Of a stretch of DNA of 35,394 bases, positions 5,072 through 31,554 are shown one piece after another. The notes under the pieces were generated by a model, which was not told the origin of the DNA, did not search any database, and saw only the letters and a list, made by a program, of their open reading frames with translations. This DNA is from a virus (lineage: Duplodnaviria > Heunggongvirae > Uroviricota > Caudoviricetes): IMG/VR virus record IMGVR_UViG_2711768013_000020. The stretch is one strand, 5' to 3'. A program made the position numbers and the translations under genes. Position 1 is the stretch's first letter, and every line of letters begins with the position of its first letter.

Positions 5072-5736
5072 TTACTGCGAAAGTTTGTTAATGGAAAGGA
5101 AGCCGCCAAAGTTGCCGACGTTATTGCGAAACTTACAGCCGCTCAGGCATTTGCTGCATTTATCCTTCGTGATATCGGACGTCGGCTGATCATATTCATC
5201 CGCGACCGCCGGACCGTGATAACCGCACTCATCGCCGCGATAGGTCCAGGTGCAGGTGTTGGCCAGCATGATGCGCCCCGGAAAAACAGCGCCATCCGTT
5301 TCCGTCGGCGTGGACAGTACAAANNNNNNNNNNNNNNNNNNNNNNNNNNNNNNNNNNNNNNNNNNNNNNNNNNNNNNNNNNNNNNNNNNNNNNNNNNNNN
5401 NNNNNNNNNNNNNNNNNNNNNNNNNNNNNNNNNNNNNNNNNNNNNNNNNNNNNNNNNNNNNNNNNNNNNNNNNNNNNNNNNNNNNNNNNNNNNNNNNNNN
5501 NNNNNNNNNNNNNNNNNNNNNNNNNNNNNNNNNNNNNNNNNNNNNNNNNNNNNNNNNNNNNNNNNNNNNNNNNGTCGCCCCTGCCAGGTGACCGGCTCAC
5601 CTTTTTCGTTCTGCTCATTACAGAAAAAATAACGTTCTCCACCGACCTCTGTCAGATCGATTTCCCAGAGCACCACCTGGGCTGACTGAGTGAGGCGTGT
5701 CGTCTCATGATGTGTTTCCTGTGGAATATCCTGCAT
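5072..5736 (-). CDS. L: Minor tail protein L, interrupted by a 250-N assembly gap (frame across the gap unknown)
   Basis: N-terminal part MQDIPQETHHETTRLTQSAQVVLWEIDLTEVGGERYFFCNEQNEKGEPVTWQGR (5575-5736) and C-terminal part ...CTWTYRGDECGYHGPAVADEYDQPTSDITKDKCSKCLSGCKFRNNVGNFGGFLSINKLSQ (5072-5269) both lambda L-like. Confidence 0.8.
5324..5573. other. Assembly gap (250 N) inside gene L
   Basis: Run of N. Confidence 1.
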
Positions 5737-19885: not shown

Positions 19886-20415
19886 TGATCTATCCCCCAA
19901 CAGGCTAATGCGCTTTCCTGGTCACGACGAATAACCTGTCCATAGCAGTTATTTGAACGTATGCGGCAATCGCGCCCACCATCTTTTATCCACCAGCGAA
20001 TCGCCTCGCATGCACCTTTACGATCACCAGCATTCAGCCGCTTATAAAACGTCGACGGAAAACACTTACCGGGGCCAATGTTATAGGGACAAAATGACGC
20101 GATACCCGCTTTTTGTGGCTCGGTCAGTGGTACTTTAATATTGCGCTCCACCCATGCCAGCGCCTTATCACGCTCAATGGCGTTGACCTGGTCGCATTTT
20201 TCCTTCGACAGTTTCATACCGGGAAAAACGGGTTTTCCATCCACCATCGTGGCACCCCGACAGATGGTCCAGATGCCGGACCCATCGCGGTATGCCGTTG
20301 TGTGGTTACCTTCTTTTTCATCCAGAAACTGGTCGAGAATATCAGGCGCGGGCGCACCGACGGCAATCAGTGCCAGAACGGCAGCCGACAGGCCGTATCT
20401 GATTTTTGCGTTCAT
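19882..20415 (-). CDS. R: Endolysin (GH24 lysozyme) with N-terminal signal-anchor-release-like segment
   Basis: 177 aa; hydrophobic N-terminus [16 protein letters not shown] then lysozyme-like [20 protein letters not shown]. Confidence 0.85.
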
Positions 20416-20550
20416 GGATATTTATCAGGATTTATCGGTTTCTGCCCACGGACAGGTTTATCTGTTCCGGTCAGTGACTTAAGGTTGTGATTCCGGAGGA
20501 GTCTTCAGAGAACCAGTAATTCTTCCTGGTAGCTTTCCTTTGTAGGTTAT

Positions 20551-20560
20551 NNNNNNNNNN
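20551..20560. other. Assembly gap (10 N) inside the holin gene
   Basis: Run of N. Confidence 1.
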
Positions 20561-20632
20561 AAACCAGTACCCGGCACTACCTGCTGAGGTGCCATAGGCG
20601 ACACCCGTTGTTAACTTATCCATGGATTTCAT
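20561..20632 (-). CDS. S: Pinholin (phage 21 S-type), N-terminal 24 codons only; remainder lost in or after the gap
   Basis: [24 protein letters not shown] with dual-start MKSM motif and RBS GAGGTGGGG; no holin-like C-terminus in any frame of 20416-20550. Confidence 0.65.
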
Positions 20633-20671
20633 AACCCCACCTCGCAGATGCGGGTGCTGTGTAATGGAAAT

Positions 20672-20693
20672 AAAAAGGCCACCTGACGTGGCC
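20672..20693 (-). terminator. Candidate terminator between the methyltransferase and the lysis genes
   Basis: Hairpin GGCCAC-gtcag-GTGGCC followed by TTTTT on the minus strand. Confidence 0.4.
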
Positions 20694-20699
20694 ACCAGA

Positions 20700-21752
20700 T
20701 TATTTCCCCACCAGCTCGTTTATCTCTTTCACTGTCTGATTAAACCGCTCTGACTCAAGCTCAACACCTAAGGCCCGACGCCCCAGCGCCATTGCTGCTT
20801 TTATTGTGGAACCGGATCCCATAAAAAAATCAGCAACCAGATCACCTGGTCGACTACTGGCATTGATTATTTGCCTGAGCATATCCGCCGGTTTCTCACA
20901 CGGATGTTTCCCCGGGTAGAACTGAACGGGTTTATGCATCCAGACATCGGTATAAGGCACGGAGACTGATACGGAGAAATAGCGCCGGAGAGATTTAAAC
21001 TCATCCAGCAATTCAGAATATTTACGATTCAGTGAATCATAAGATGCCACCAGCTGGTGGTGTGGTTGTTCCAGTTGTTGTTCCTGAAACTTCTCTGCCG
21101 CTATACGGGAAAACAGTGCCTGTAACTTCCGATAGTCAGCCTCATTCGGCAACTGCCACTGACTGGCACCAAACCAGTGGGAAACCATATTTTTCTTACC
21201 TGTGGCTTCGGCAATTTGTTTTGCCGTTATACCCAGTTCGGCACGAGCATCCCTGAAATACGATATCAGCGGTGCCATTATGTGCTGTTTGAGTTCCCTT
21301 TCTTTTGCCGCATAGCCGTCACTTTTGCCGCGATATGGCCCCTGGTAATGTTCAGCAAACAGAACGCGCTCTGTGGCAGGAAAATATGCGCGCAGACTTT
21401 CTTTATTACACCCATTCCAACGTCCGGACGGCTTCGCCCAGATGATATGGTTAAGCACGTTGAAACGTTCACGCATCATGATCTCAATATCAGATGCCAG
21501 GCGATGCCCACAGAACAGGTAAAGGCTTCCGGCAGGTTTCAACACCCGCCAGAACTGGGCCAGACAGTGGTCCAGCCACTTAAGGTAATCTTCGTCCCCT
21601 TTCCACTGATTGTCCCAACCGTTGGGTTTCACCTTGAAGTAAGGCGGATCGGTAACAATCAGGTCAATGGAATCATCAGGCAGGGACTGAATAAAATGCA
21701 GGCAATCAGCGTTGATTAAATCAACACTGTTTATTTTTACAGTATTTTTCAT
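20700..21752 (-). CDS. DNA methyltransferase, beta-class (N6-adenine or N4-cytosine), with no adjacent restriction endonuclease
   Basis: 350 aa; DPPY catalytic motif near the N-terminus (IVTDPPYF) and SAM-binding FFMGSGST near the C-terminus. Confidence 0.85.
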
Positions 21753-21902
21753 GGATCAGTAAGCGTAACTCTGGTAGGCTCACTCTGCTTTTGCGCTAAA
21801 GCAGTGGGCCGTGGTTCGCTTGTGACCAGTAAGCATGAGCGAATGGCTGGCAGGTGCTACCAACACCCACCAGCCGCCCATTTTCACAGCAGGAAACCGC
21901 CA

Positions 21903-22130
21903 TTACTGGCAGCGTCTGAATTTATTCCCGTACCCGCCGTTATCCTTCGCCAGACCCGCCAGAACTAACTGAGTCAGTATTAACTGGCACCGGGCTTCGC
22001 TTACTCCGGTAGTTCTCGTCATCATGCGTGGCGTTACCCACTTGTCAGCAGGTAAGAAATGAAGGACTGCGGCGGCGGTTTCTGTCATATCTTGCTGTTT
22101 TAGCATGTCTTTTTCCCTTCTGGTTAACAT
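21903..22130 (-). CDS. Hypothetical small protein (75 aa)
   Basis: ORF only; no recognised family. Confidence 0.35.
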   Translation of the reverse strand: MLTRREKDMLKQQDMTETAAAVLHFLPADKWVTPRMMTRTTGVSEARCQLILTQLVLAGLAKDNGGYGNKFRRCQ

Positions 22131-22226
22131 GACATACCAATAACTCTTGTCTAAAAAGCCAGCAAGATAAAAAGTCAGTATTCACGACCACCAGCGTGTT
22201 TACTGTACTGCACCAAGTTTACGGGT

Positions 22227-22251
22227 ACAAAAAACCCGCTCAGTGGCGGGT
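22227..22251 (-). terminator. Intrinsic terminator downstream of the lipoprotein gene (copy 1 of a repeated element)
   Basis: ACCCGC-n6-GCGGGT hairpin followed by TTTTTT on the minus strand. Confidence 0.55.
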
Positions 22252-22329
22252 TGCTATCACAGCTATATATTTACTTATTATGCCGTTACTAACATTTATC
22301 TTCGACATATAATCGAAAACAAGGTTTGC

Positions 22330-22755
22330 TTAAAACTCTGCTTTCATTTTATCCGGGAATTTTTTATTTGCAGCATAATAACTACCAAGTACATAAGCGT
22401 TCATTTGCTGCTCTACATCAACCCGACATGCCGCACTAGAACAAGCTCCACTGATAAGCCCAAAAGAACTCCCTTTAGCAGAGAGATCAGCTTTGATTTC
22501 CTCTACAGTGTTTTTCCCCATAGCAACTACACACCCTGTCACAATATATCTAGCTTTCACATCATCCATGCTAAGGATAGTAGTTTTCGCAATTTTGCTG
22601 TATCCATCATTTTTATAAACATCCATGGCAAACGCACGGCAATCTGTATAATACGGACTTGCTTTAACTTGCGAATACTCAGGTAATTTCATACCTGCAC
22701 AACCAACTAAACAAAAACCTATCGCTGCTATTAATACCTTTTTCATTACAGTCAT
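22330..22755 (-). CDS. Lipoprotein of unknown function (moron downstream of Q)
   Basis: MKKVLIAAIGFCLVGCAG signal peptide with lipobox; AT-rich coding sequence; flanked by terminators. Confidence 0.7.
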   Translation of the reverse strand: MTVMKKVLIAAIGFCLVGCAGMKLPEYSQVKASPYYTDCRAFAMDVYKNDGYSKIAKTTILSMDDVKARYIVTGCVVAMGKNTVEEIKADLSAKGSSFGLISGACSSAACRVDVEQQMNAYVLGSYYAANKKFPDKMKAEF

Positions 22756-22902
22756 AACCTAGAAGCATCATTGAAACTAATTTATTAAATAACCATCGAG
22801 TTTCTGGAATACAGACGTTAACCATCTCTCCAAAATCTAAAAGATAATAAGAAAAAATGTTTAACGCACCAATCCATTTCATAGTTTCATGAGACATCAG
22901 GC

Positions 22903-22931
22903 ACAAAAAACCCGCTCAGCGGCGGGTTTTT
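22903..22931 (-). terminator. Intrinsic terminator downstream of Q (tR'-like; copy 2 of the repeated element)
   Basis: AAAAAACCCGCTCAGCGGCGGGTTTTT: same stem as 22227-22251 with U-runs on both strands. Confidence 0.55.
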
Positions 22932-22974
22932 GACATTTACCAACGGTAGACATACAAGGCCCATCGTTGAGAAA

Positions 22975-23003
22975 ATCTTATCCATATTTTTTGAAAAATG
23001 CAA
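22975..23003 (-). promoter_or_regulatory. Candidate late promoter (PR'-like) between Q and the tR'-like terminator
   Basis: Minus strand TTGCAT - 17 nt - TAAGAT. Confidence 0.3.
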
Positions 23004-23034
23004 GTATCACGTCGACATCTTCGGCGAAAATTAT

Positions 23035-23787
23035 CTATCTTGTCACTTTTCTCAATTGCGATTCAGCATACGCTTCTTCCTGCCAGCACTTTGTAACCAG
23101 TTTATTAATAACGTCTGCATATCCTTTGTACCACTGATAATCCGTCAGGTCCGGTACCAGTTTCTGGACATGATGCCGCGCCAGTGTGGTTGGTAAACGG
23201 CTAAACCGGTTGCCATTGCAACGCCCACAAATCTTATAAACAGGCACACCATGAAGCCGGGTTCTTTTTTCATCCAGGACAATACCTTTACCCTTACACC
23301 CTCTGCACGCTGTGCTGACTTCTCCCTTACCATGGCAATGCTGACATAGTTCCTTCACCCACTCTTCCTTGATAACAGATTCCCCGCTTCTGGAGTGTTT
23401 CACCACTTCGCGCAATACATTATGAAATCCAGTACCAGCACAATGCTCACAGCGAGCCTTACTTGCCGCAGACCTGGAATAATCAGCAAAGGCAAAATTC
23501 ACAAGGTAAGGGATGATCTGTAACCGGGTTTCTTCACTCAATTTGTTCAATGTCGGGTTATCCAGTGCCATCGCGTAATTGAGCAGACCTTCAATCGCAA
23601 ATTGAGGATCCTGAACACCAACTTTTGCCAGGAATAAGGCAAACCCAAGCGGTGCTTTCGACTGCACCATCCCCTGCGCAGCCATCACATCCGTAATCGT
23701 TAAACCACCTGAGCCTGTCGCCGGTGCGTCATCGCTCAATTTTGGAGATTTTGGGGAGTAATATTTTGGTAAGGCTTCAAGGTTCAT
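23035..23787 (-). CDS. Q: Late-gene antiterminator Q
   Basis: From ATG 23787 MNLEALPKYYSPKSPKLSDD...; zinc-binding CxxC pairs (CEHCAGTG, CGRCNG), C-terminal ...LRKVTR; lambda Q-like. Confidence 0.85.
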   Translation of the reverse strand: MNLEALPKYYSPKSPKLSDDAPATGSGGLTITDVMAAQGMVQSKAPLGFALFLAKVGVQDPQFAIEGLLNYAMALDNPTLNKLSEETRLQIIPYLVNFAFADYSRSAASKARCEHCAGTGFHNVLREVVKHSRSGESVIKEEWVKELCQHCHGKGEVSTACRGCKGKGIVLDEKRTRLHGVPVYKICGRCNGNRFSRLPTTLARHHVQKLVPDLTDYQWYKGYADVINKLVTKCWQEEAYAESQLRKVTR

Positions 23788-23800
23788 GCTCGTTCTCCAC

Positions 23801-24796
23801 TTACGCCAATACGCCAATTGCCAGCGCACGATCGATAAAACGAAATATCAGCTCCAGCTGGGAGCCATACTTCTCTTCAAATGCCACGGTATCCGCATGC
23901 AGCTCGTCGTGATGCTTTCTGCACAAAGGCAACACAAAGAGGTCATGCGCTTTTGTACCCATTCCACCCTGACCGTGGCCTATCAGGTGGTGGGGATCAT
24001 CAGCAGGCTTTCCACAACATGCACACGGCTGTGTCTTAACCCAGCGCGTGTACTTTTCATTAACCCAGCGGCGGCGTTTTGGGCGTAACATAAAAGACTC
24101 CGGCGACTCCGGATCCACTTTCAGCGCCAGCACCTTTTTTGCCTTATCCTGGATGATGCTGGTGGCAGGAACCGAAGGCACAAGGTCACTTTCCCGGGTG
24201 ACAGACGGCACAACAGGCTTTGGTAATCTCAGTGCCTTACGGGCTGCACTTTCCGGTAAGGCATCCGCCAGGTCATTACGAATCAGCCACCAGCACAGTT
24301 CCGGCATTGTCACAACGTGACTATCATCAAAACCGAGATCCCGACGCACAACAGACAACACCCAGCGGGCACAGTTATCCGTTGCCATTGATTCCAGCCG
24401 TTCCGTGAACTGATCGCGCAGCTGGTTATCGCAGTGCCAGCACAGACGGATTGCGCCCGGAGCGTGTCGCATTGTGGTCATGTTCTCGCTGTGCCAGTCG
24501 GAATGAGGCCACTGGCAGCCTTTTTCACGAAGTAACCAGCTTTCAAGACATTCCACGCCACCAGCACGACGGATCACTGCCTCATTGCGGAACACGGCCC
24601 GAACGGCAGGATCATCCGCCAGCGGTTGTGATGCCGCCGGAACGGCACCACTGGCGAAAGATGAATAACGTTCCGGCTCAGGCTCCAGCAGAACACGCCC
24701 CTGCATAAACAGGGGCATCAGCTCTGAACCTGGCCTGAACAATACGATCCCCATACGCGGGGCAATTTCAGGGGTCAGTAGTGCTCTCACGGTCAC
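23801..24796 (-). CDS. nin-region protein with C-terminal HNH-like zinc-finger motif (DUF968-like)
   Basis: 331 aa; C-terminal CACCGKPADDPHHLIGHG...CRKHHDELH. Confidence 0.5.
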   Translation of the reverse strand: MTVRALLTPEIAPRMGIVLFRPGSELMPLFMQGRVLLEPEPERYSSFASGAVPAASQPLADDPAVRAVFRNEAVIRRAGGVECLESWLLREKGCQWPHSDWHSENMTTMRHAPGAIRLCWHCDNQLRDQFTERLESMATDNCARWVLSVVRRDLGFDDSHVVTMPELCWWLIRNDLADALPESAARKALRLPKPVVPSVTRESDLVPSVPATSIIQDKAKKVLALKVDPESPESFMLRPKRRRWVNEKYTRWVKTQPCACCGKPADDPHHLIGHGQGGMGTKAHDLFVLPLCRKHHDELHADTVAFEEKYGSQLELIFRFIDRALAIGVLA

Positions 24797-24797
24797 C

Positions 24798-25607
24798 TCA
24801 ATGAACGGTATCGAGCAGCTTTAACAGCTCAGGGAATCGGGATTCGAAGAAATGCGGCTGCGTCTCGCGCGGATTTGCAGGACTGGTGATGTTCTTGCCG
24901 AACATGCAGCCTTTCGCCGTCAGCGACCAGAATTTTTTGATGTTGTTAATCGCGGTACGGCTGTATCGTTCGCGTTGTTCAACGATCCCCAGCTTCACCA
25001 TCTGGTGATATGCCTGATTAGCCGTCAGGCGGATACCATACTGCTTCAGCAGTGCACTCAGCGACAGCGTGGGGCGACTTGAGCCATCAGGCGCGTCAGC
25101 AGGAGCATCAATGGCATAGCGCGGTGCCAGATTCGGTAAGCCAACAGCCTCCTGAAGCTTCTGACAGGCTCCAAGCACTGATGAGTTAGACAGATTTAAT
25201 TCCCGGCGCATAAAGTCCAGCAGGATCACGCCAGCCTGCATCTTGTCAGCAGCCTGTCCGGATAATTTTTCCGGTGCGCTGGTTACCATGTCGAAAGTAC
25301 GGATCACCTTCAGATGGAATGACGGGCTGATCCACATTGCATAGGCATACACCAGTTCTTTGCAGACATACGTCCCCTGGTTATTTCCGCCATTAATGAC
25401 GCTAACTGGTTGATTTTGTTCCAGAGGCGGAATTCCACCCTCGGTGAAAAGTTGTTCAATCAATTCACAGGTTTGCTTATTGGAGAGCCAGTATTTCGGG
25501 CGGTTTTTTTGTTCTCCCCCGGCTGCCCTGTGCAGATCGTTCAGGCTGTAACGCCCATAAGCATCACGACGAACTTCAATACCATCAATGACCATCAGAT
25601 TATTCAT
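24798..25607 (-). CDS. KilA-N domain protein
   Basis: From ATG 25607 MNNLMVIDGIEVRRDAYGRYSLNDLHRAAGGEQKNRPKYWL (KilA-N-like), RBS GAGGAG. Confidence 0.7.
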   Translation of the reverse strand: MNNLMVIDGIEVRRDAYGRYSLNDLHRAAGGEQKNRPKYWLSNKQTCELIEQLFTEGGIPPLEQNQPVSVINGGNNQGTYVCKELVYAYAMWISPSFHLKVIRTFDMVTSAPEKLSGQAADKMQAGVILLDFMRRELNLSNSSVLGACQKLQEAVGLPNLAPRYAIDAPADAPDGSSRPTLSLSALLKQYGIRLTANQAYHQMVKLGIVEQRERYSRTAINNIKKFWSLTAKGCMFGKNITSPANPRETQPHFFESRFPELLKLLDTVH

Positions 25608-25626
25608 ACTTCGTTTCTCCTCTTGA

Positions 25627-26016
25627 TCAGGCGGCTGCACCCGCCGGTTTCTCATACTTACTGATAGTGATCTCGACCTTCCCTTTCTGGATAACCGGTC
25701 CCCACTCCACCAGCATTCTTTTCACCTGGCTGTCGTCTTCCCACACCCCCGCGTGGGTCAGGGCGTCAAACAGCGCCTTGTTATAGTTGTCCAGATCGCG
25801 GATCCGGTTATCCGGAGGAAACAACACGATCTCCACTGAAGCAGGTGCCGACGTTGGTTTTGGCAGACGACGTAACTGCTCAACTATTGCTGCGCACGCC
25901 GCGCTCTGAAATTTTCGCCCCGCCGCGCTTATCAGGCTCTTACCAGCAAATGCCCCTTTGTTGGGGTGTCGCCAGTACGTGTTCACGCTGGGCGGGAAAG
26001 GCAGGATCAGCTTCAT
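25627..26016 (-). CDS. rusA: Holliday junction resolvase RusA
   Basis: 129 aa; MKLILPFPPSVNTYWRH...RDLDNYNKALFDALTHAGVWEDDSQV matches RusA motifs. Confidence 0.85.
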   Translation of the reverse strand: MKLILPFPPSVNTYWRHPNKGAFAGKSLISAAGRKFQSAACAAIVEQLRRLPKPTSAPASVEIVLFPPDNRIRDLDNYNKALFDALTHAGVWEDDSQVKRMLVEWGPVIQKGKVEITISKYEKPAGAAA

Positions 26017-26339
26017 ACTTTCAGGCCTCTCTCATGTAACCAGTGGGTTGCACGCAGCCTGGCGTTTTCCTCACCGGCAAGCAGTGAGCGGATAATCCCG
26101 ACCGCCTCGCTGTCGTCGTCCTTCACCGCGGTATGAAGAGTGATACCCCGGGCCATGCCACGCTTTATCGTGATGACGCCTTTTTTCTCCAGTGCGCGAA
26201 GATGTTCCACCGCTGCATTCACTGAACGGTATCCCAGCATGGTTGCCACCTCCTGATTGGTTGGCGGGAAGCCACGTTCTTTCTGGTAAGAAATCAGCAT
26301 ATCCAGCACCTGCTGCTGGCATTGAGTTAACGTCGTCAT
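26013..26339 (-). CDS. LexA N-terminal DNA-binding-domain homologue lacking the S24 peptidase domain
   Basis: 108 aa; MTTLTQCQQQVLDMLISYQKERGFPPTNQEVATMLGYRSVNAAVEHLRALEKKGVITIKRGMARGITL follows the LexA N-terminal domain pattern. Confidence 0.6.
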   Translation of the reverse strand: MTTLTQCQQQVLDMLISYQKERGFPPTNQEVATMLGYRSVNAAVEHLRALEKKGVITIKRGMARGITLHTAVKDDDSEAVGIIRSLLAGEENARLRATHWLHERGLKV

Positions 26340-26989
26340 GCCGCCATCTCCCTGACCAGTTTTTCCGCCTGCTGGCGAACCTGCGCCAGAAACGCCTCAC
26401 CACATGCCTCAAGTTCATCGCGCCCGATGTAGCTGATTGCCGGTCCCTTCCAGGTCTTGTCGAAAACAGCAATAGCACCAGCGAAGAAAGCGCCTGTCGG
26501 CACCTGCTTCTCGTCCTTCGGGATAAACCAGGCAGGCAGTTCAAAACCAATACGCCCGCGAATAAAAGCAATATGATCTGCATCTTCCGGCCACCACACT
26601 TCGCTGGTGGCAGCTTTGATCAGGAAAACATAGCGTCCGCCCTTATCACGCATGGCACTGGCATGTTTCATGATGTAACGCATGCCGGTGATGTATTGCC
26701 CTTCATGCTGACTGGCGCGGCTGTACGGGGGATTACCAAAGGCAGCACCTTTAAGCTCCGCAAGACGTTCAGACCAGTCATGCGCCAGCGCGTTGTCTTC
26801 CGCAGTGTAATAAGCGGCACATTTGGCGTTATCACCATCAGTGAACAGATCCAGAACAAACGGGCCAAACAGGGTGTTAATTCCCCAGAAAATGTTATCC
26901 GGCGTGCGCCACTGATCGCCCACTTCCTTCAGTTCATGGGCTGGTTTGTTCCGCAGCTCCACCAGCGCCTGGCAATATTTATTACTCAT
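26336..26989 (-). CDS. Phage Dam-type DNA N6-adenine methyltransferase
   Basis: NPPY motif (AFGNPPYS); probable start ATG 26989 (MSNKYCQALVELRNKP). Confidence 0.8.
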   Translation of the reverse strand: MSNKYCQALVELRNKPAHELKEVGDQWRTPDNIFWGINTLFGPFVLDLFTDGDNAKCAAYYTAEDNALAHDWSERLAELKGAAFGNPPYSRASQHEGQYITGMRYIMKHASAMRDKGGRYVFLIKAATSEVWWPEDADHIAFIRGRIGFELPAWFIPKDEKQVPTGAFFAGAIAVFDKTWKGPAISYIGRDELEACGEAFLAQVRQQAEKLVREMAA

Positions 26990-27477
26990 TAAGCCCCCAC
27001 GTAATTCCCTGACAGATACCACTCTTCACCCGATGCAGCGCGCTTGCTGCTTTTCCGTAAGCACCGCTCACGACGCGCCAGAAAATTGTTTCGTTCTGGC
27101 TGGGAGTGGCTTTCACGGAATGCCGCCATCCACACCGTTGCAGCACGACGGTATAAGCCCCTGGACTCCAGTTCTTCCGCCTGGCGGGTCAGGCACAAAA
27201 TCACCCGGGGATCGTTAGTGCCGACATAGAAATTGCGCACAGGTCTGGTTTCACGAACTGGTTGTGGTTCCGGCTCCTGCGCTCTCTCAGTCAGGCGTGG
27301 GAAATGTCTGCGTGTATCTCCTTCATAACGGTGAGCCACACGCCCACTCTGACGTAACTTGCTTGCTGACTGCAGAACGCGCTGCCGTGAGTAACCTGCA
27401 AAAGCATCCGCAATGTCTCCGGAAGTACACCCCGGATGGGCTTCAATGAATTTCTGAACTTCATTCAAAAGACTCAT
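26989..27477 (-). CDS. PerC-family transcriptional regulator homologue with N-terminal extension
   Basis: C-terminal LESRGLYRRAATVWMAAF...RRERCL matches the PerC/Pch signature; start ATG 27477 with RBS GGGGGTGA. Confidence 0.55.
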   Translation of the reverse strand: MSLLNEVQKFIEAHPGCTSGDIADAFAGYSRQRVLQSASKLRQSGRVAHRYEGDTRRHFPRLTERAQEPEPQPVRETRPVRNFYVGTNDPRVILCLTRQAEELESRGLYRRAATVWMAAFRESHSQPERNNFLARRERCLRKSSKRAASGEEWYLSGNYVGA

Positions 27478-27479
27478 GA

Positions 27480-28298
27480 TCACCCCCTGAATCCTGCCGG
27501 GATCTGGCTGTAGTCCACGTTGTCGTAACTGGCTTTGAAGTACGGGTCCTCGCGTCTGGCTGCAGATACCGCAGGAACTTCCCAGAATTCTTCGAAATGA
27601 CGATCCGGACCAAAGAACGTGACAGCCTGTTTCACAAATTGTGTGCCGCTGTTACCCATCGCAGATACCCATCCCGCGTAGCGTTTCACACCTTCCAGCA
27701 TGGTTTCGGGGTTTACTCCCTCATTCAAACGGGCTTTCCAGGCTTTGAAGGCTGCAGATTTTGAATTGCCACCAGCACGTTTGGGATATGCCAGCCATGC
27801 CTGCTCAAACTCCGGAGAGTATTCCGGTCGGTTTGAACGAACTCGCACGGACTCATCAACTGATGCACCAACAGCTATTGGTTCATTGACTGGTTCTTTG
27901 ACTGGTTCAAAAGAGTGACTGGTTCTGGGTGAATCTCCTGCACTACCCCCTGGTGCAACTCCTGCACTACCTGGTGAATTTGCTGCACCAGATAGTGAAT
28001 TATTTGCACTACCCCCTAGTGAATCTCCTGCACCATCCAGATGAAGGAGATAGATATTACTTGAGTTACCTTTTTCACCTTTCCGGGTGACTTTTTTTAC
28101 CAGCCCGGACTCACAAAGGGCCGCAATATGATTCATCACAGAACGTTTGCTAATTTCGCACTGGTCAGCAATATGCTGGTAGCTGGGCCAGCACTCACCC
28201 TGATCGCTGGCATTATCAGCCAGCTTGATCAGAACCAGTTTTCGCAATGGATTACCCACTCGAATTTTCATCGCTTTAACCATCAGCTCCATACTCAT
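27480..28298 (-). CDS. Replication initiator (O-like replisome organiser: N-terminal winged HTH, Gly/Ser linker, conserved C-terminal domain)
   Basis: MSMELMVKAMKIRVGNPLRKLVLIKLADNASDQGECWPSYQHIADQCEISKRSVMNHIAALCESGLVKKV; RBS GGAGGTG; iterons inside the gene. Confidence 0.7.
   Translation of the reverse strand: MSMELMVKAMKIRVGNPLRKLVLIKLADNASDQGECWPSYQHIADQCEISKRSVMNHIAALCESGLVKKVTRKGEKGNSSNIYLLHLDGAGDSLGGSANNSLSGAANSPGSAGVAPGGSAGDSPRTSHSFEPVKEPVNEPIAVGASVDESVRVRSNRPEYSPEFEQAWLAYPKRAGGNSKSAAFKAWKARLNEGVNPETMLEGVKRYAGWVSAMGNSGTQFVKQAVTFFGPDRHFEEFWEVPAVSAARREDPYFKASYDNVDYSQIPAGFRG
27927..28038. repeat. Five tandem iteron-like repeats (20-25 bp, consensus GGTGAATCTCCTGCACTACCCCCT): candidate replication origin inside the initiator gene
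   Basis: Direct repeats read from the sequence; they encode the Gly/Ser/Ala-rich linker of the initiator. Confidence 0.6.
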
Positions 28299-28531
28299 GC
28301 TGCACCTCCGAGATGCTTCATGTTTTTTCCGGAGCGAAAGGCTATAAGCGGCATACTGACGCGGTAATTACGGCCCAGCGGTTCACAAATCACCTTCTGG
28401 CATTCACGGTCAACCAGGCTAACACGTAGAACATGCCCTGCAGGCGTGGTGTACCACTGCCCAACTGTAGGAATTGATATTTTTTTACGCTGAAGCAAAC
28501 GGCAAATATTGAGGATCAACGGATTAAGCAT
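28295..28531 (-). CDS. Hypothetical protein (78 aa), translationally coupled to the initiator
   Basis: ATG 28531 with RBS GGAGGG; stop overlaps the initiator start (ATGA). Confidence 0.4.
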   Translation of the reverse strand: MLNPLILNICRLLQRKKISIPTVGQWYTTPAGHVLRVSLVDRECQKVICEPLGRNYRVSMPLIAFRSGKNMKHLGGAA

Positions 28532-29360
28532 GACGATGCCCTCCGCTGATATTCAGGAGACGGTGAATATGAAAATTAGCCTTATCCGCCAGACGAATAC
28601 GTTCAGCTTGCAAGTTAAGAAGGGTTTCTACCAGAACCTGATGTGCCTGCGGATCCGAAAGAGTTACCTTGCGCAGAGCACGTAGTGCAGTTGTTACATA
28701 ACTGAGTTTATGTAAGTCTTCATCATTCAGACGAGTGAGGGCTGGGACAGTAGCCATGATGGCAGCCTCCTTGATCGGTGAAATACTTCCACCACCGGAA
28801 ACGCCAATTTCGCTGGTGGTGAACTGAACGGGGTTGGCGTAACCGGTGATCAAGGAAACCGGCGCATCTTTCGATGCCCCCGCCCAGCCCACCATAACTT
28901 TGATGTGAGCAAATGCGGACGATAAAAAAGACGCTGGCGCGTCATATATCGCCTTGATCAATTCCAGGACGCCAATCCCGGCACCCGCTTTATAAGGTGC
29001 CTGAACAGTGTAACGTCCCGGAATGGCAGAATCAATGTGCTGGTGGTCCTTCACACTCAACAAAATCACGCCTGAATTTCCACAAAGGACTAAAGCACTC
29101 ATGCGGGTAGTCTTTGCGAAGATAGATAACGCGCTGTGTTTCTGGCTCCCAACGAATAACATGAACATAAAGTCCTCTTCCGTCACGAAACCAGCGGTTA
29201 AGTTCCTGCACAACTCGCCCCCCACAGTCAGGTAAAGTTCTCTGTGGTTACTTACAGCCAGGTGATTTGGTAATCTGCATTCATGCCGTAACAACAGGTG
29301 TTCAGCGACGCTGACCACCAGCTGTTGCGACAAACGGTTATTTGCCGTTAAACTGTTCAT
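28524..29360 (-). CDS. Hypothetical protein (278 aa) between the cII analogue and the replication initiator
   Basis: ATG 29360 with RBS GGAGAAA, ATGA overlap with the upstream stop; Gly-rich segment SEIGVSGGGSISPIKEAA; no family recognised. Confidence 0.6.
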   Translation of the reverse strand: MNSLTANNRLSQQLVVSVAEHLLLRHECRLPNHLAVSNHRELYLTVGGELCRNLTAGFVTEEDFMFMLFVGSQKHSALSIFAKTTRMSALVLCGNSGVILLSVKDHQHIDSAIPGRYTVQAPYKAGAGIGVLELIKAIYDAPASFLSSAFAHIKVMVGWAGASKDAPVSLITGYANPVQFTTSEIGVSGGGSISPIKEAAIMATVPALTRLNDEDLHKLSYVTTALRALRKVTLSDPQAHQVLVETLLNLQAERIRLADKANFHIHRLLNISGGHRHA

Positions 29361-29920
29361 GCGTTAGTTTCTCCACAGACACAAAACGCCACGACGCCCG
29401 GAGCTGCACACTCGCGGGCGTCACTCTTTTCTGGAGCGCAAAAGATTTTGTAGACCAGTGCTGCATGCTCCTGGAGCTTCGAAATTGACAGATACAACTC
29501 ATCATTAATTGCTGTCTGCTCGTGTGGCTCCACTACCCCATCTTCGATTGCCGAACGAATCTGCTTTGAGTAACTCCCGATCTGTTCGATGACTTCCAGC
29601 AGGCGCTGGTTTATATCGGCGTTCTCTACTTCCTCAATTTCAGGAAGCGATACAAACACCCCACCAGCAGACTGTGCGACAGCATCCGCAATGTAGTGAG
29701 TGCCAGCCGCGCGCTGTAAAATCATTGCCCATCCCAGCGGGAAAATCTGATCGCCATCTGCACGAAGGCGGTTGAATAAAGCGTTCTCTGTTACATCCAG
29801 CCACTCAGCAGCTTCAGCGTAACCCCCCGGCAACGCCGCGATAGTTTTTCTGACAGCTTTCACGTACCACTCAGGCTGTTTTTCTACTTTCCAGTGATGC
29901 TTACCCACGGTTAGCCTCAT
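29357..29920 (-). CDS. YdaT-family protein, probable cII functional analogue
   Basis: 187 aa directly downstream of a YdaS-type cro; assignment by position and family resemblance. Confidence 0.55.
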   Translation of the reverse strand: MRLTVGKHHWKVEKQPEWYVKAVRKTIAALPGGYAEAAEWLDVTENALFNRLRADGDQIFPLGWAMILQRAAGTHYIADAVAQSAGGVFVSLPEIEEVENADINQRLLEVIEQIGSYSKQIRSAIEDGVVEPHEQTAINDELYLSISKLQEHAALVYKIFCAPEKSDARECAAPGVVAFCVCGETNA

Positions 29921-29951
29921 CGTTCTGTGGTTAAAAATTGAAGGTGTTCTG

Positions 29952-30153
29952 TTAATCTTTCGGATAGATATCCGGTCTTAAGTCAGATTTCGTAATTGCA
30001 CCTGACGTGCATTGCTCAAGTTTTTTAGCCAGCACAAAACTGGCTTTTTTATAACCATTGAAAACCAGCCGTAAGTAGCCTGGTGTTGAGCCAACTTTTC
30101 CGGCCAACTCACCCTGCTGTTCTTTGGTTAAAGAGTCCCAATACGCTTTCATA
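29952..30153 (-). CDS. cro: Cro-like repressor (YdaS/Cro HTH family)
   Basis: 67 aa from ATG 30153 (MKAYWDSLTKEQQGELAGKVGSTPGYLRLVFNGYKKASFVLAKKLEQCTSGAITKSDLRPDIY), RBS GGAGGT; divergent from cI. Confidence 0.8.
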
Positions 30154-30242
30154 CAATATGTACCTCCGGTATACATATTACATGATTGAGATGAACCTTC
30201 AAGATACTTGTACCTTATCGGTACAAAGGTTTTAATTTCTTT
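30154..30242. promoter_or_regulatory. Right operator/promoter region (OR, PR) between cro and cI
   Basis: 19-bp palindrome TTGTACCTTATCGGTACAA at 30208-30226; second partial palindrome ATATGTACC..GGTATACATAT; minus-strand PR candidate TTGAAG - 16 nt - TAATAT. Confidence 0.6.
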
Positions 30243-30917
30243 ATGAAAACAGTCCATGACATCCGGCGGTCTAACGCCAGAAAACTGAGAGATGGTGTTG
30301 GCGGGAATTCTTCCTTTGCCACCATGATTGATCGCGAGCCAACCCAGACCAGCAGGTTTATGGGAGATGGTGCAACTAAAAATATCGGTGACAGCATGGC
30401 ACGGCACATCGAAAAATGTTTCGACCTGCCTGTCGGATGGCTTGATCAAGAACACCAGACAACGAACATCACAAAAAAACCTGACGTTTCAATCACTAAC
30501 AAACAAATAACGTTAGTCCCTGTCATATCATGGGTACAGGCCGGAGCATGGAAAGAAGTTGGCTATTCTGAGGTTGATTTGAGCACAGCAGAAACTTATC
30601 CCTGCCCTGTACCCTGTGGCGAAATGACTTATATCTTGCGGGTGATTGGTGATTCAATGATTGATGAGTACCGCCCGGGAGACATGATTTTTGTTGATCC
30701 TGAAGTCCCTGCCTGCCACGGTGACGACGTTATTGCATTGATGCACGATACAGGCGAAACCACCTTCAAGCGGTTGATAGAAGATGGAACACAGCGTTAT
30801 CTCAAAGCATTAAACCCAAACTGGCCTGAGCCTTACATTAAGATTAACGGTAATTGCTCTATAATTGGTACAGTGATTTTCTCAGGAAAACCAAGAAGAT
30901 ACATAATAAAGGCCTAA
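30243..30917 (+). CDS. cI: CI-type prophage repressor (HTH plus S24 LexA-like autopeptidase)
   Basis: 224 aa; candidate Ala-Gly cleavage site (WVQAGAW), serine motif VIGDSM and downstream lysine (ETTFKRL); no SD upstream. Confidence 0.85.
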   Translation: MKTVHDIRRSNARKLRDGVGGNSSFATMIDREPTQTSRFMGDGATKNIGDSMARHIEKCFDLPVGWLDQEHQTTNITKKPDVSITNKQITLVPVISWVQAGAWKEVGYSEVDLSTAETYPCPVPCGEMTYILRVIGDSMIDEYRPGDMIFVDPEVPACHGDDVIALMHDTGETTFKRLIEDGTQRYLKALNPNWPEPYIKINGNCSIIGTVIFSGKPRRYIIKA

Positions 30918-30930
30918 TCAATATTTATAA

Positions 30931-30951
30931 CCTGCTTCGGCAGGTTTTTTT
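30931..30951 (+). terminator. Intrinsic terminator after cI
   Basis: CCTGC-ttcg-GCAGG followed by TTTTTTT. Confidence 0.7.
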
Positions 30952-30955
30952 ATAC

Positions 30956-30984
30956 TTGACAATGTACCTTTGGGATACATAATG
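30956..30984 (+). promoter_or_regulatory. PL-like early-left promoter with overlapping operator-like dyad
   Basis: TTGACA (30956-30961) - 16 nt - CATAAT; spacer contains ATGTACCTTTGGGATACAT, related to the OR palindrome. Confidence 0.5.
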
Positions 30985-31467
30985 TATCTAAAAGAAACAC
31001 AGCACAGGCAAGATTAAACAAAATTTGGTTGTAACACGGCGTATGGCACATGCGTCGTTAGCGGTCTGGGGACGTTAAAGGGGACAATCCACTCCTTGCT
31101 CGGGCAAACAAACCAGGTAGCCGGAATGTGCAAGTCAATGATGATGCTGATAAGACGCCTAACCAGCGTGGCGATTCGGTTTGACGCCTGGGAAGAGACC
31201 AGGGTGCAACGATGAGGACATTTATGGAACCGCGACAAAGTGTGGTGCCGTAACTGGCTAAGTGCTCTCAGCGTTGTGGTGAATGCGCAGGCTGATGCGC
31301 GAAAGACATTGCAGCTAATGCGGAAAAGAGCTGTTCGGCGGGGCAATTAAACGCCCGTGAGAGTCTGAAATAACCGCAAGCCGGAGATCAGCACCGGTCA
31401 CCACAACAGCCACTGCTTTGGCGGTACCAGTTTGTACACTTGCTTCCGGCTGGTACCGCTCTTTTTA

Positions 31468-31554
31468 CAAAACAGAGAAGAGCATCACCGGACGACGGGC
31501 TCATAACCAAATCCATCCGGGCGGCTGCCACCGCAGGTGTTCTTCTCTGTTTTG
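31468..31554 (+). other. Perfect 14-bp inverted repeat (CAAAACAGAGAAGA / TCTTCTCTGTTTTG) enclosing a 59-nt structured segment in the early-left leader
   Basis: Read directly from the sequence; no U-run after the 3' arm. Confidence 0.45.

Follow-up and report, generated by a model that had tools for sequence, protein, structure and literature searches.

Why should a phage carry the DNA-reading head of the SOS repressor LexA and do without the part that makes LexA responsive to RecA? The question is raised by a small gene in a lambdoid Escherichia coli prophage, represented by a 35,394-nucleotide (nt) stretch of DNA (IMG/VR record IMGVR_UViG_2711768013_000020) that is called the window throughout this text. 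The gene is situated at positions 26013 to 26339, on the minus strand, and encodes a protein of 108 residues, in which a LexA DNA-binding domain (DBD) is followed by a family-specific C-terminal module of two helices. The protein is referred to here as the LexA-DBD protein. As a sequence observation it is ordinary, being already annotated 'LexA family'. Its function is the more difficult part of the question. The explanation that we favor, tentatively and mostly from sequence comparison, is that the protein is an early-lytic, RecA-insensitive dimer that would bind SOS-type operators.

A LexA winged helix without a protease

The open reading frame (ORF) is real and encodes a LexA winged helix that lacks the S24 protease. 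Residues 1-65 match the Pfam family LexA_DNA_bind (PF01726) from end to end (model positions 1-65 of 65, E=2.1e-19, 69.5 bits), and BLASTP aligns residues 1-90 with E. coli LexA at 43% identity (E=1e-21). Residues 2-69 of the E. coli LexA query were confirmed by the alignment with 1LEA, and the query agrees closely with a retrieved enterobacterial LexA. A phmmer search of all Protein Data Bank (PDB) sequences returned LexA entries only, with 1LEA at E=9e-16; the sole match to another protein, at E=0.39, is not significant. The AlphaFold model, built on 19 family sequences, has a predicted local distance difference test (pLDDT) score of 82. It contains the three helices (residues 6-22, 28-35 and 40-52) and two strands (56-58 and 66-68) of the LexA type and superimposes onto the LexA-DNA complex 3JSO at 1.0 Å over 68 residues, with 50% identity. 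The winged helix-turn-helix (HTH) comprises residues 1-68 (positions 26136 to 26339, minus strand). A first-pass annotation, made from the sequence alone, had described the N-terminal LexA pattern as holding almost position for position, and this description is borne out by the profile, by the formal alignment to LexA and by the fit to 3JSO.

The same annotation had reported that the S24 peptidase domain is missing. This is indeed the case: the protein ends at residue 108 and has no match to PF00717, whereas its match to TIGR00498 stops at model position 91 of 203 (positions 1-91) and scores 71.3 bits compared to a cut-off of 110.95. By these sequence measures, the lack of an S24 domain and the partial, sub-threshold TIGR00498 match, the protein is not a LexA orthologue. 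Its full length (residues 1-108) fits positions 1-106 of the 106 positions of PHROG 362, a phage 'transcriptional repressor' family, with E=4.3e-59. Among the PADLOC defence-system models only a weak match of the winged-helix type was obtained (CARF3, E=3e-4), which was dismissed.

Recognition helix and SOS boxes

The LexA contact residues were taken from secondary sources. According to a review, the CTGT sequence is read in 3JSO mainly by S39, N41, A42 and E45 of LexA (PMC11442139); E44 is also listed as a DNA contact (PMC3091678). The recognition helix of the LexA-DBD protein, SVNAAVEHLRALEK, spans residues 39-52 (positions 26184 to 26225, minus strand). S39, N41, A42 and E45 are identical in the LexA-DBD protein and in E. 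coli LexA, and the wing is similar. Because the four base-reading residues of LexA are kept, the protein may be expected to bind CTGT-type operators. Binding to SOS boxes is supported indirectly, by the four identical residues, the similar wing and the presence of such boxes in the phages.

The boxes were scored using a matrix of 25 E. coli SOS boxes, the training sites themselves scoring 11.9-27.5 bits. The window contains a single strong site, TACTGTAAAAATAAACAGTG on the minus strand at positions 21725 to 21744, which scores 22.8 bits, compared to 21.4 for the best of 300 shuffles. The search for SOS-box-like sites in the prophage, which the first-pass annotation had suggested, has led to one site of chromosomal quality. 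The box occupies codons 3-9 of a methylase gene (20700-21752, minus strand, 350 residues) and is kept at 20.9-24.4 bits in nine diverged methylase genes of E. coli, Citrobacter, Klebsiella, Hafnia and Providencia phages. In these nine genes the synonymous positions needed for the box are invariant, while adjacent codons vary. The methylase appears to belong to the M.EcoGI/GII family of non-specific adenine methylases, which are reported to be silent in lysogens and toxic when expressed (PMC5778455); LexA control of the family is not discussed in that paper. The box is a candidate target of host LexA and, conceivably, of the LexA-DBD protein.

Other boxes were found around the gene in related phages. 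The IMG/VR set consists of 80 near-identical loci of the E. coli clade that carry the LexA-DBD gene, so its figures are neighborhood counts and do not describe diversity. The methylase box is present in 25 of the 80 loci, and a box of 25.7-27.2 bits inside the cI gene, of the mEp460 type, in 27 (one with a 23.6-bit variant). This box is near-perfect (TACTGTTTTTACATACAGTA; L078 1546-1565 in mEp460) and coincides with the coding sequence for the linker that connects the HTH to the S24 domain (peptide ...KSNTVCKNSI...). Four loci have a 21.9-bit box, TACTGTATTTATGAACAGTG, in the intergenic region between the RusA and KilA-N genes (L067 6765-6784, and also L040, L080 and L084). This region of about 150 nt lies directly after the LexA-head and RusA genes, and the spacer is absent from the window. 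Its box suggests that the KilA-N gene of the L067-type loci is LexA-gated and antirepressor-like. At least one box of at least 20 bits lies within 6 kb of the gene in 44 of the 80 loci. In the Klebsiella clade a dinI homolog, located 600 nt upstream on the same strand, has a 27.8-bit box over its promoter (L013-L015, 5385-5404). Overall, these phages are connected to the LexA regulon in several places, and no single box travels with the gene.

Several observations weigh against an SOS-box binder. The residue corresponding to the LexA contact E44 is Val in the LexA-DBD protein, and no member of the family has an acidic residue at this position, where Val, Ala, Thr, Phe or Leu is found. The Klebsiella clade has L44 and L45, a Citrobacter freundii homolog has T42 and G45, and S42 occurs in some members. 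The methylase box is also kept in P27, phiNP and LLS, in which no LexA-DBD homolog was found, so host LexA alone can explain it; gene and box assort independently, and the box was therefore rejected as an obligatory target. No box of any type is obligatorily linked to the gene, as 36 of the 80 loci have none within 6 kb. The contiguous block from the gene to the methylase is found in 359 complete E. coli genomes, compared to 2233 that have the gene and 1079 that have the methylase 5' region. The proposed dimerisation of the tail, described below, is drawn from a model of the monomer only, and a literature search found no functional study of the protein.

The changes at residues 42, 44 and 45 would be better accommodated by an evolving, phage-specific operator than by fixed mimicry of host sites. 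The main alternative, which we consider somewhat less likely than the SOS-box binder, is that the LexA head has drifted to a phage operator outside the SOS system and switches a phage promoter on or off, as an activator or a repressor of timing, with no effect on the host SOS response. The precedent is gp6 of phage GIL01, a LexA head and nothing else, which binds its own palindrome at a late promoter and acts as an activator (PMC6182141). Many phages encode stand-alone LexA heads, and the family-wide replacement of E44, together with the clade-specific changes at A42 and E45, suggests that the specificity is moving. Nevertheless, the four principal base-reading residues of LexA are unchanged in the clade to which the window belongs, and the search for a palindrome outside the SOS type gave no candidate. 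CTGT/ACAG pairs in the window, inverted and everted, at spacings of 0-20, are not enriched over shuffles at any spacing; the intergenic inverted repeats within 20400-23100 and 29850-31500 belong to terminators and to immunity operators, and there is no LexA-like one among them. Sites of the form CTGT-N8-ACAG with one mismatch number 19 in the window, compared to 12 +/- 3.7 expected. A late-promoter function like that of gp6 would find late transcription already served by the Q antiterminator. The genes of the operon (23035 to 28298) overlap or abut, leaving essentially no intergenic space in which a local operator could be accommodated. If the protein does use an operator of its own, a LexA head captured by a phage would have become a timing regulator for a second time, independently of GIL01 gp6.

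The C-terminal tail

A dimer that binds SOS-type operators would need a means of pairing, and this is the role that we propose for the tail (residues 75-108, positions 26016 to 26117, minus strand). In the model the tail consists of two amphipathic helices, residues 75-87 and 93-103, with a pLDDT of about 85. The linker, residues 69-74, is of low confidence, the pLDDT falling below 50 at residues 71-75. The tail is kept in full-length relatives that have just 36-50% identity, found in prophages of Klebsiella, Citrobacter, Salmonella and Hafnia and in coliphage mEp390. These share the pattern EAVxhhRxLLxxExxARxRAxxhLxxxG, in which A97 and L101 are invariant or nearly so. The ratio of nonsynonymous to synonymous substitution rates (dN/dS; Nei-Gojobori method, relatives at 83-87% protein identity) is about 0.05-0.11 in the DNA-binding domain, and in the tail it is 0.10-0.23. 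Both values are low, and therefore both halves of the protein are under purifying selection. Fold searches against the PDB and BFVD matched the winged helix only and gave nothing informative for the tail. Thirty residues folded into two helices have no stable core on their own, so they must pack either on a second copy or on another protein. From the model we infer that the tail dimerises the protein, taking over what the C-terminal domain does in LexA.

The other protein, if there is one, could be the product of the downstream DUF968 gene (23801-24796), which is HNH-like. The tail would then dock on the DUF968 protein, and the pair would act at DNA sites chosen by the LexA head. We consider this unlikely, although the two genes keep close company. 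In every context examined the order is LexA-head gene, an optional RusA gene, an optional KilA-N gene, DUF968, and a Q-type gene or another gene in the Q position. DUF968 is downstream in clades with identities as low as about 40% (the window, mEp390, Klebsiella, L012 and L016-L018) and in 76 of the 80 IMG/VR loci. The short two-helix tail, unable to form a stable core alone, needs a partner of some kind. Furthermore, one protein of 240 residues (P0159, L020 6001-6723) has a LexA head joined in frame to the C-terminal, HNH-like part of DUF968. This fusion is a singleton, however, present in one member on one contig, and could be due to a deletion in a decaying prophage. Databases also contain fusions of the gene with Dam or RusA (P0022, P0092 and P0260, for example), which resemble artefacts of frameshifting or readthrough between overlapping genes and were left out of the evidence. 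Pairs of DUF968 and Q often occur where there is no LexA-DBD gene, as exemplified by ydfU-ydfT in the Qin prophage of K-12, and a conserved gene order in lambdoid nin regions is often due to the inheritance of modules and not to interaction. The contig that carries the fusion is a metagenomic prophage in which a phage recA gene, split into two ORFs (L020 4576-5584), precedes the fused gene.

The tail also contains the dipeptide Ala88-Gly89 (positions 26073 to 26078, minus strand). Both BLASTP and HMMER align the segment LLAGE with VAAGE of LexA, which places Ala88-Gly89 on Ala84-Gly85, the LexA cleavage site. The first-pass annotation had stated that the Ala-Gly site is lacking. This is not so, but the absence of autocleavage still holds, and the description of the protein as a non-cleavable LexA-domain protein is upheld because the catalytic domain is absent and the dipeptide is a non-conserved vestige. 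The position is occupied by AN, VG, TG, AE, ER or DD in relatives, and in the model it lies in the turn that connects two helices, not in an extended loop. On these two grounds, conservation and predicted structure, Ala88-Gly89 was ruled out as a cleavage site. We read it as a leftover from a full-length lexA ancestor.

It is very improbable that the LLAGE region acts as a substrate in trans, or as a pseudo-substrate, of RecA* or of the LexA active site, so that the protein would be destroyed on SOS induction or would slow LexA cleavage. Intermolecular cleavage of LexA is known, A88-G89 does align with A84-G85, and in a MAFFT alignment the last stretch of the tail, RATHWLHERG, is matched to residues 108-117 of LexA, NADFLLRVSG; against this, Ala-Gly is not conserved even in close relatives, the region is predicted to be helical and not an extended loop, and its conserved residues fit the pattern of an amphipathic helix. 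Least probable of all is that the gene is a decaying, functionless remnant of a truncated lexA-like gene, as its shortness, the missing catalytic domain and the apparent relic Ala-Gly might suggest, because dN/dS is 0.05-0.23 across both halves, conservation is full-length down to 36-50% identity in the prophages named above, the gene is mostly intact in 2233 E. coli genomes, and its Shine-Dalgarno sequence is a good one, with translation coupled to that of the neighboring genes.

Proposed role in the SOS response

The uncleavable SOS-box binder would be a phage transcription factor that has descended from a gammaproteobacterial LexA winged helix, the S24 autoprotease and dimerisation domain having been replaced by a two-helix module of about 30 residues. 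The protein would be made only after induction or infection, would pair through its helical tail, and would occupy SOS-box-like operators of the CTGT type. Lacking a catalytic domain, it would probably resist inactivation by RecA*.

In the window the immunity repressor (30243-30917) contains a Peptidase_S24 domain (E=1.5e-26) with QAG, GDSM and FKRL motifs, in agreement with the earlier description of cI as looking RecA-cleavable. With the S24 domain and its Ala-Gly, GDSM and Lys motifs in place, the phage looks SOS-inducible. Since the repressors of these phages are of the S24 type, the LexA-DBD protein would appear while LexA is being cleaved. After the destruction of host LexA it would re-occupy SOS boxes on the host chromosome and in the phage group. 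The phage targets would be the box at the 5' end of the methylase gene and, in relatives, the KilA-N promoter box and the cI-internal box. The outcome would be a damped SOS regulon during phage growth, with LexA-controlled rivals or lethal functions damped as well. Genes of SOS or recombination functions are found near the LexA-DBD gene in several phages: RusA in the window, dinI in the Klebsiella clade and a phage recA in L020.

The earlier interpretation, that the protein could bind SOS boxes and modulate the host SOS response or prophage induction, is plausible and has partial support, but it is unproven; that the protein affects the SOS response or induction is a hypothesis derived from sequence. 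A bolder version, which we put forward with more hesitation, is that of a RecA-proof 'second LexA'. The tail dimer would re-close the SOS boxes after LexA is lost and would shut both the host SOS regulon and the LexA-gated nodes of phages, namely promoters of antirepressor-type KilA-N genes, the toxic, non-specific M.EcoGII-type methylase, and those rival prophages or colicins that are under SOS control. If this version is true, prophage competition and the timing of toxin-phage development would be governed by a gene that about 40% of E. coli genomes, as well as Stx2 phages, carry. More generally, an uncleavable SOS-box binder would be a phage-encoded SOS brake, which would matter for Shiga-toxin phage induction, for competition between co-resident prophages and for SOS-driven mutagenesis under antibiotics. 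The gene is very widespread, occurring in Shigella serotype-converting phages, in cdtI and in Stx2a and Stx2c phages, and simple experiments could decide its role.

The operon and the prophage

The window is a lambdoid E. coli prophage and the LexA-DBD gene lies in its nin-equivalent region, where the first-pass annotation had placed it. The nin-type early operon extends over positions 23035 to 28298 on the minus strand, with the gene order HTH_36/DnaD_N, PerC, Dam, LexA-DBD, RusA, KilA-N, DUF968 and Q; the HTH_36/DnaD_N product is of the replication type, and the PerC product is PerC-like. The LexA-DBD start codon overlaps the Dam stop codon in an ATGA sequence (26336 to 26339, minus strand), suggesting translational coupling, and a second ATGA (26013 to 26016, minus strand) joins the LexA-DBD stop codon to the RusA start. 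The Shine-Dalgarno sequence, GGAG (26348 to 26351, minus strand), is positioned 8 nt 5' of the LexA-DBD ATG, in the terminal part of the Dam gene. Promoter prediction gave no sigma-70-like site on the minus strand immediately upstream of the LexA-DBD gene. Downstream, beyond Q, follow the gene for the 350-residue N6/N4 methylase and the genes for lysis and terminase.

The methylase gene is preceded by a leader (21753-21905, minus strand) of about 150 nt, which is non-coding and conserved from E. coli phages to Hafnia and Providencia phages. The leader is predicted to form two hairpins, in which six pairs keep pairing despite changes on both sides. It has no Rfam match at the gathering threshold and may be a structured RNA. 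Rfam does match a C4 antisense RNA (82 bits) and an isrK Hfq-binding RNA (64 bits) on the minus strand, at 28812-28899 and 28924-29000, respectively, which suggests that the early region contains an RNA-controlled antirepressor or regulatory module of the P1/P7 or Gifsy type. Both matches fall inside a long ORF (28524-29360) that has an Ash-family match; given the RNA matches within it, this ORF may be over-called.

The window contains three runs of N (312-332, 5324-5573 and 20551-20560), 281 bases in total, the last of which falls in the region of the lysis genes, just downstream of the methylase. Positions 21600-26339 are 100% identical to E. coli PK8217 (NZ_CP080121.1).

Distribution and annotation

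Of 5426 complete E. coli genomes, 2233 (41%) contain the LexA-DBD gene, mostly in intact form. The protein is found with 95-99% identity in SfV (orf42), SfII, SfIV, cdtI, mEp460, Ayreon, 1720a-02 and the Stx2a and Stx2c phages. Its annotations there include 'LexA DNA binding domain protein', 'LexA family transcriptional regulator' and, wrongly, 'LexA repressor'. The protein is probably pham 237, a pfam01726-only family tabulated in a survey of Stx phages. As judged from the BFVD fold search, LexA heads that stand alone occur frequently among predicted phage proteins.

Two publications that might be taken for studies of the gene are not. The interference described in the preprint on the 'bully phage' 1720a-02 is ascribed to Cro, and in the mEpimmI paper 'LexA-like' refers to the S24 domain of the repressor.

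In the Klebsiella clade an annotated protein of 130 residues probably starts further downstream than annotated, as judged from the 109-residue homolog P0259, which begins with MLSSSKLT; a hairpin lies within the putative N-terminal extension. Near the Klebsiella LexA-head homolog (L013-L015, 1-1542) there is also a pair of AAA_15 and DUF4435 genes, a pairing that resembles the PARIS defence system. A prophage with an identical LexA-DBD gene in E. coli A14 (L001, NZ_CP028760.1) is inserted at a truncated tRNA-dihydrouridine synthase gene, presumably dusA. The insertion adjoins zur, yjbJ and dinF, and from the E. coli map we take the site to be close to the host lexA-dinF operon.

Relation to LexA and to other phage regulators

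The closest relatives in the databases, the PHROG 362 or PF01726-only proteins of SfV (orf42), mEp460, cdtI and the Stx2c phages, are the same protein, at the 95-99% identity given above, and come with annotations only. E. coli LexA (1LEA, 1JHH and 3JSO) and the LexA-DBD protein share the winged-helix fold, with 43-51% identity and superposition at 1.0 Å, the base-reading residues S39, N41, A42 and E45 and a similar wing. In contrast to LexA, the LexA-DBD protein has neither the S24 domain with Ser119 and Lys156 nor a conserved cleavage site, and it has Val in place of E44. The two-helix tail stands where LexA has its dimerising C-terminal domain. Furthermore, the LexA-DBD protein is phage-encoded, belongs to an early lytic operon and falls below the TIGR00498 cut-off.

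Non-inducible LexA mutants (such as G85D and S119A) and the LexA 1-84 cleavage fragment resemble the LexA-DBD protein in that their LexA heads escape removal by RecA*, and in function they correspond to what the first-pass annotation had proposed; the PDB entries 1JHF and 1JHH were among the matches of the fold search. In the mutants the C-terminal dimerisation domain is still present. The natural 1-84 fragment is a weak binder that ClpXP degrades, whereas the LexA-DBD protein has a dedicated, conserved tail and a different C-terminus. GIL01 gp7, the DinI homologs and plasmid PsiB are, like the protein proposed here, products of mobile-element genes that tune the host SOS response. They differ in acting on the LexA or RecA proteins and not on DNA, and they are unrelated in sequence.

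The only characterised analog that consists of a LexA head alone is gp6 of GIL01, a tectivirus of Bacillus thuringiensis. Both gp6 and the LexA-DBD protein are phage-encoded products of early genes, consist essentially of a LexA DNA-binding domain of the host type that was captured by the phage, and are uncleavable. Gp6 has 66 residues and no C-terminal module, compared to 108 residues with a tail here. Gp6 is 44% identical to host LexA and binds the sequence GaCACAn nTGTGaC at the late promoter, which it activates (PMC6182141); the late genes of the window's phage use the Q antiterminator instead. BLASTP finds no local alignment between gp6 and the LexA-DBD protein at E <= 100, and no Bacillus phages are among the tblastn matches of the LexA-DBD protein. 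Since they lack BLASTP similarity, the two proteins were captured independently, each from the LexA lineage of its own host. In the alignment gp6 differs from a Bacillus LexA at two of the four readout positions, including K38, which is essential in gp6, whereas the LexA-DBD protein matches the LexA of its host at all four.

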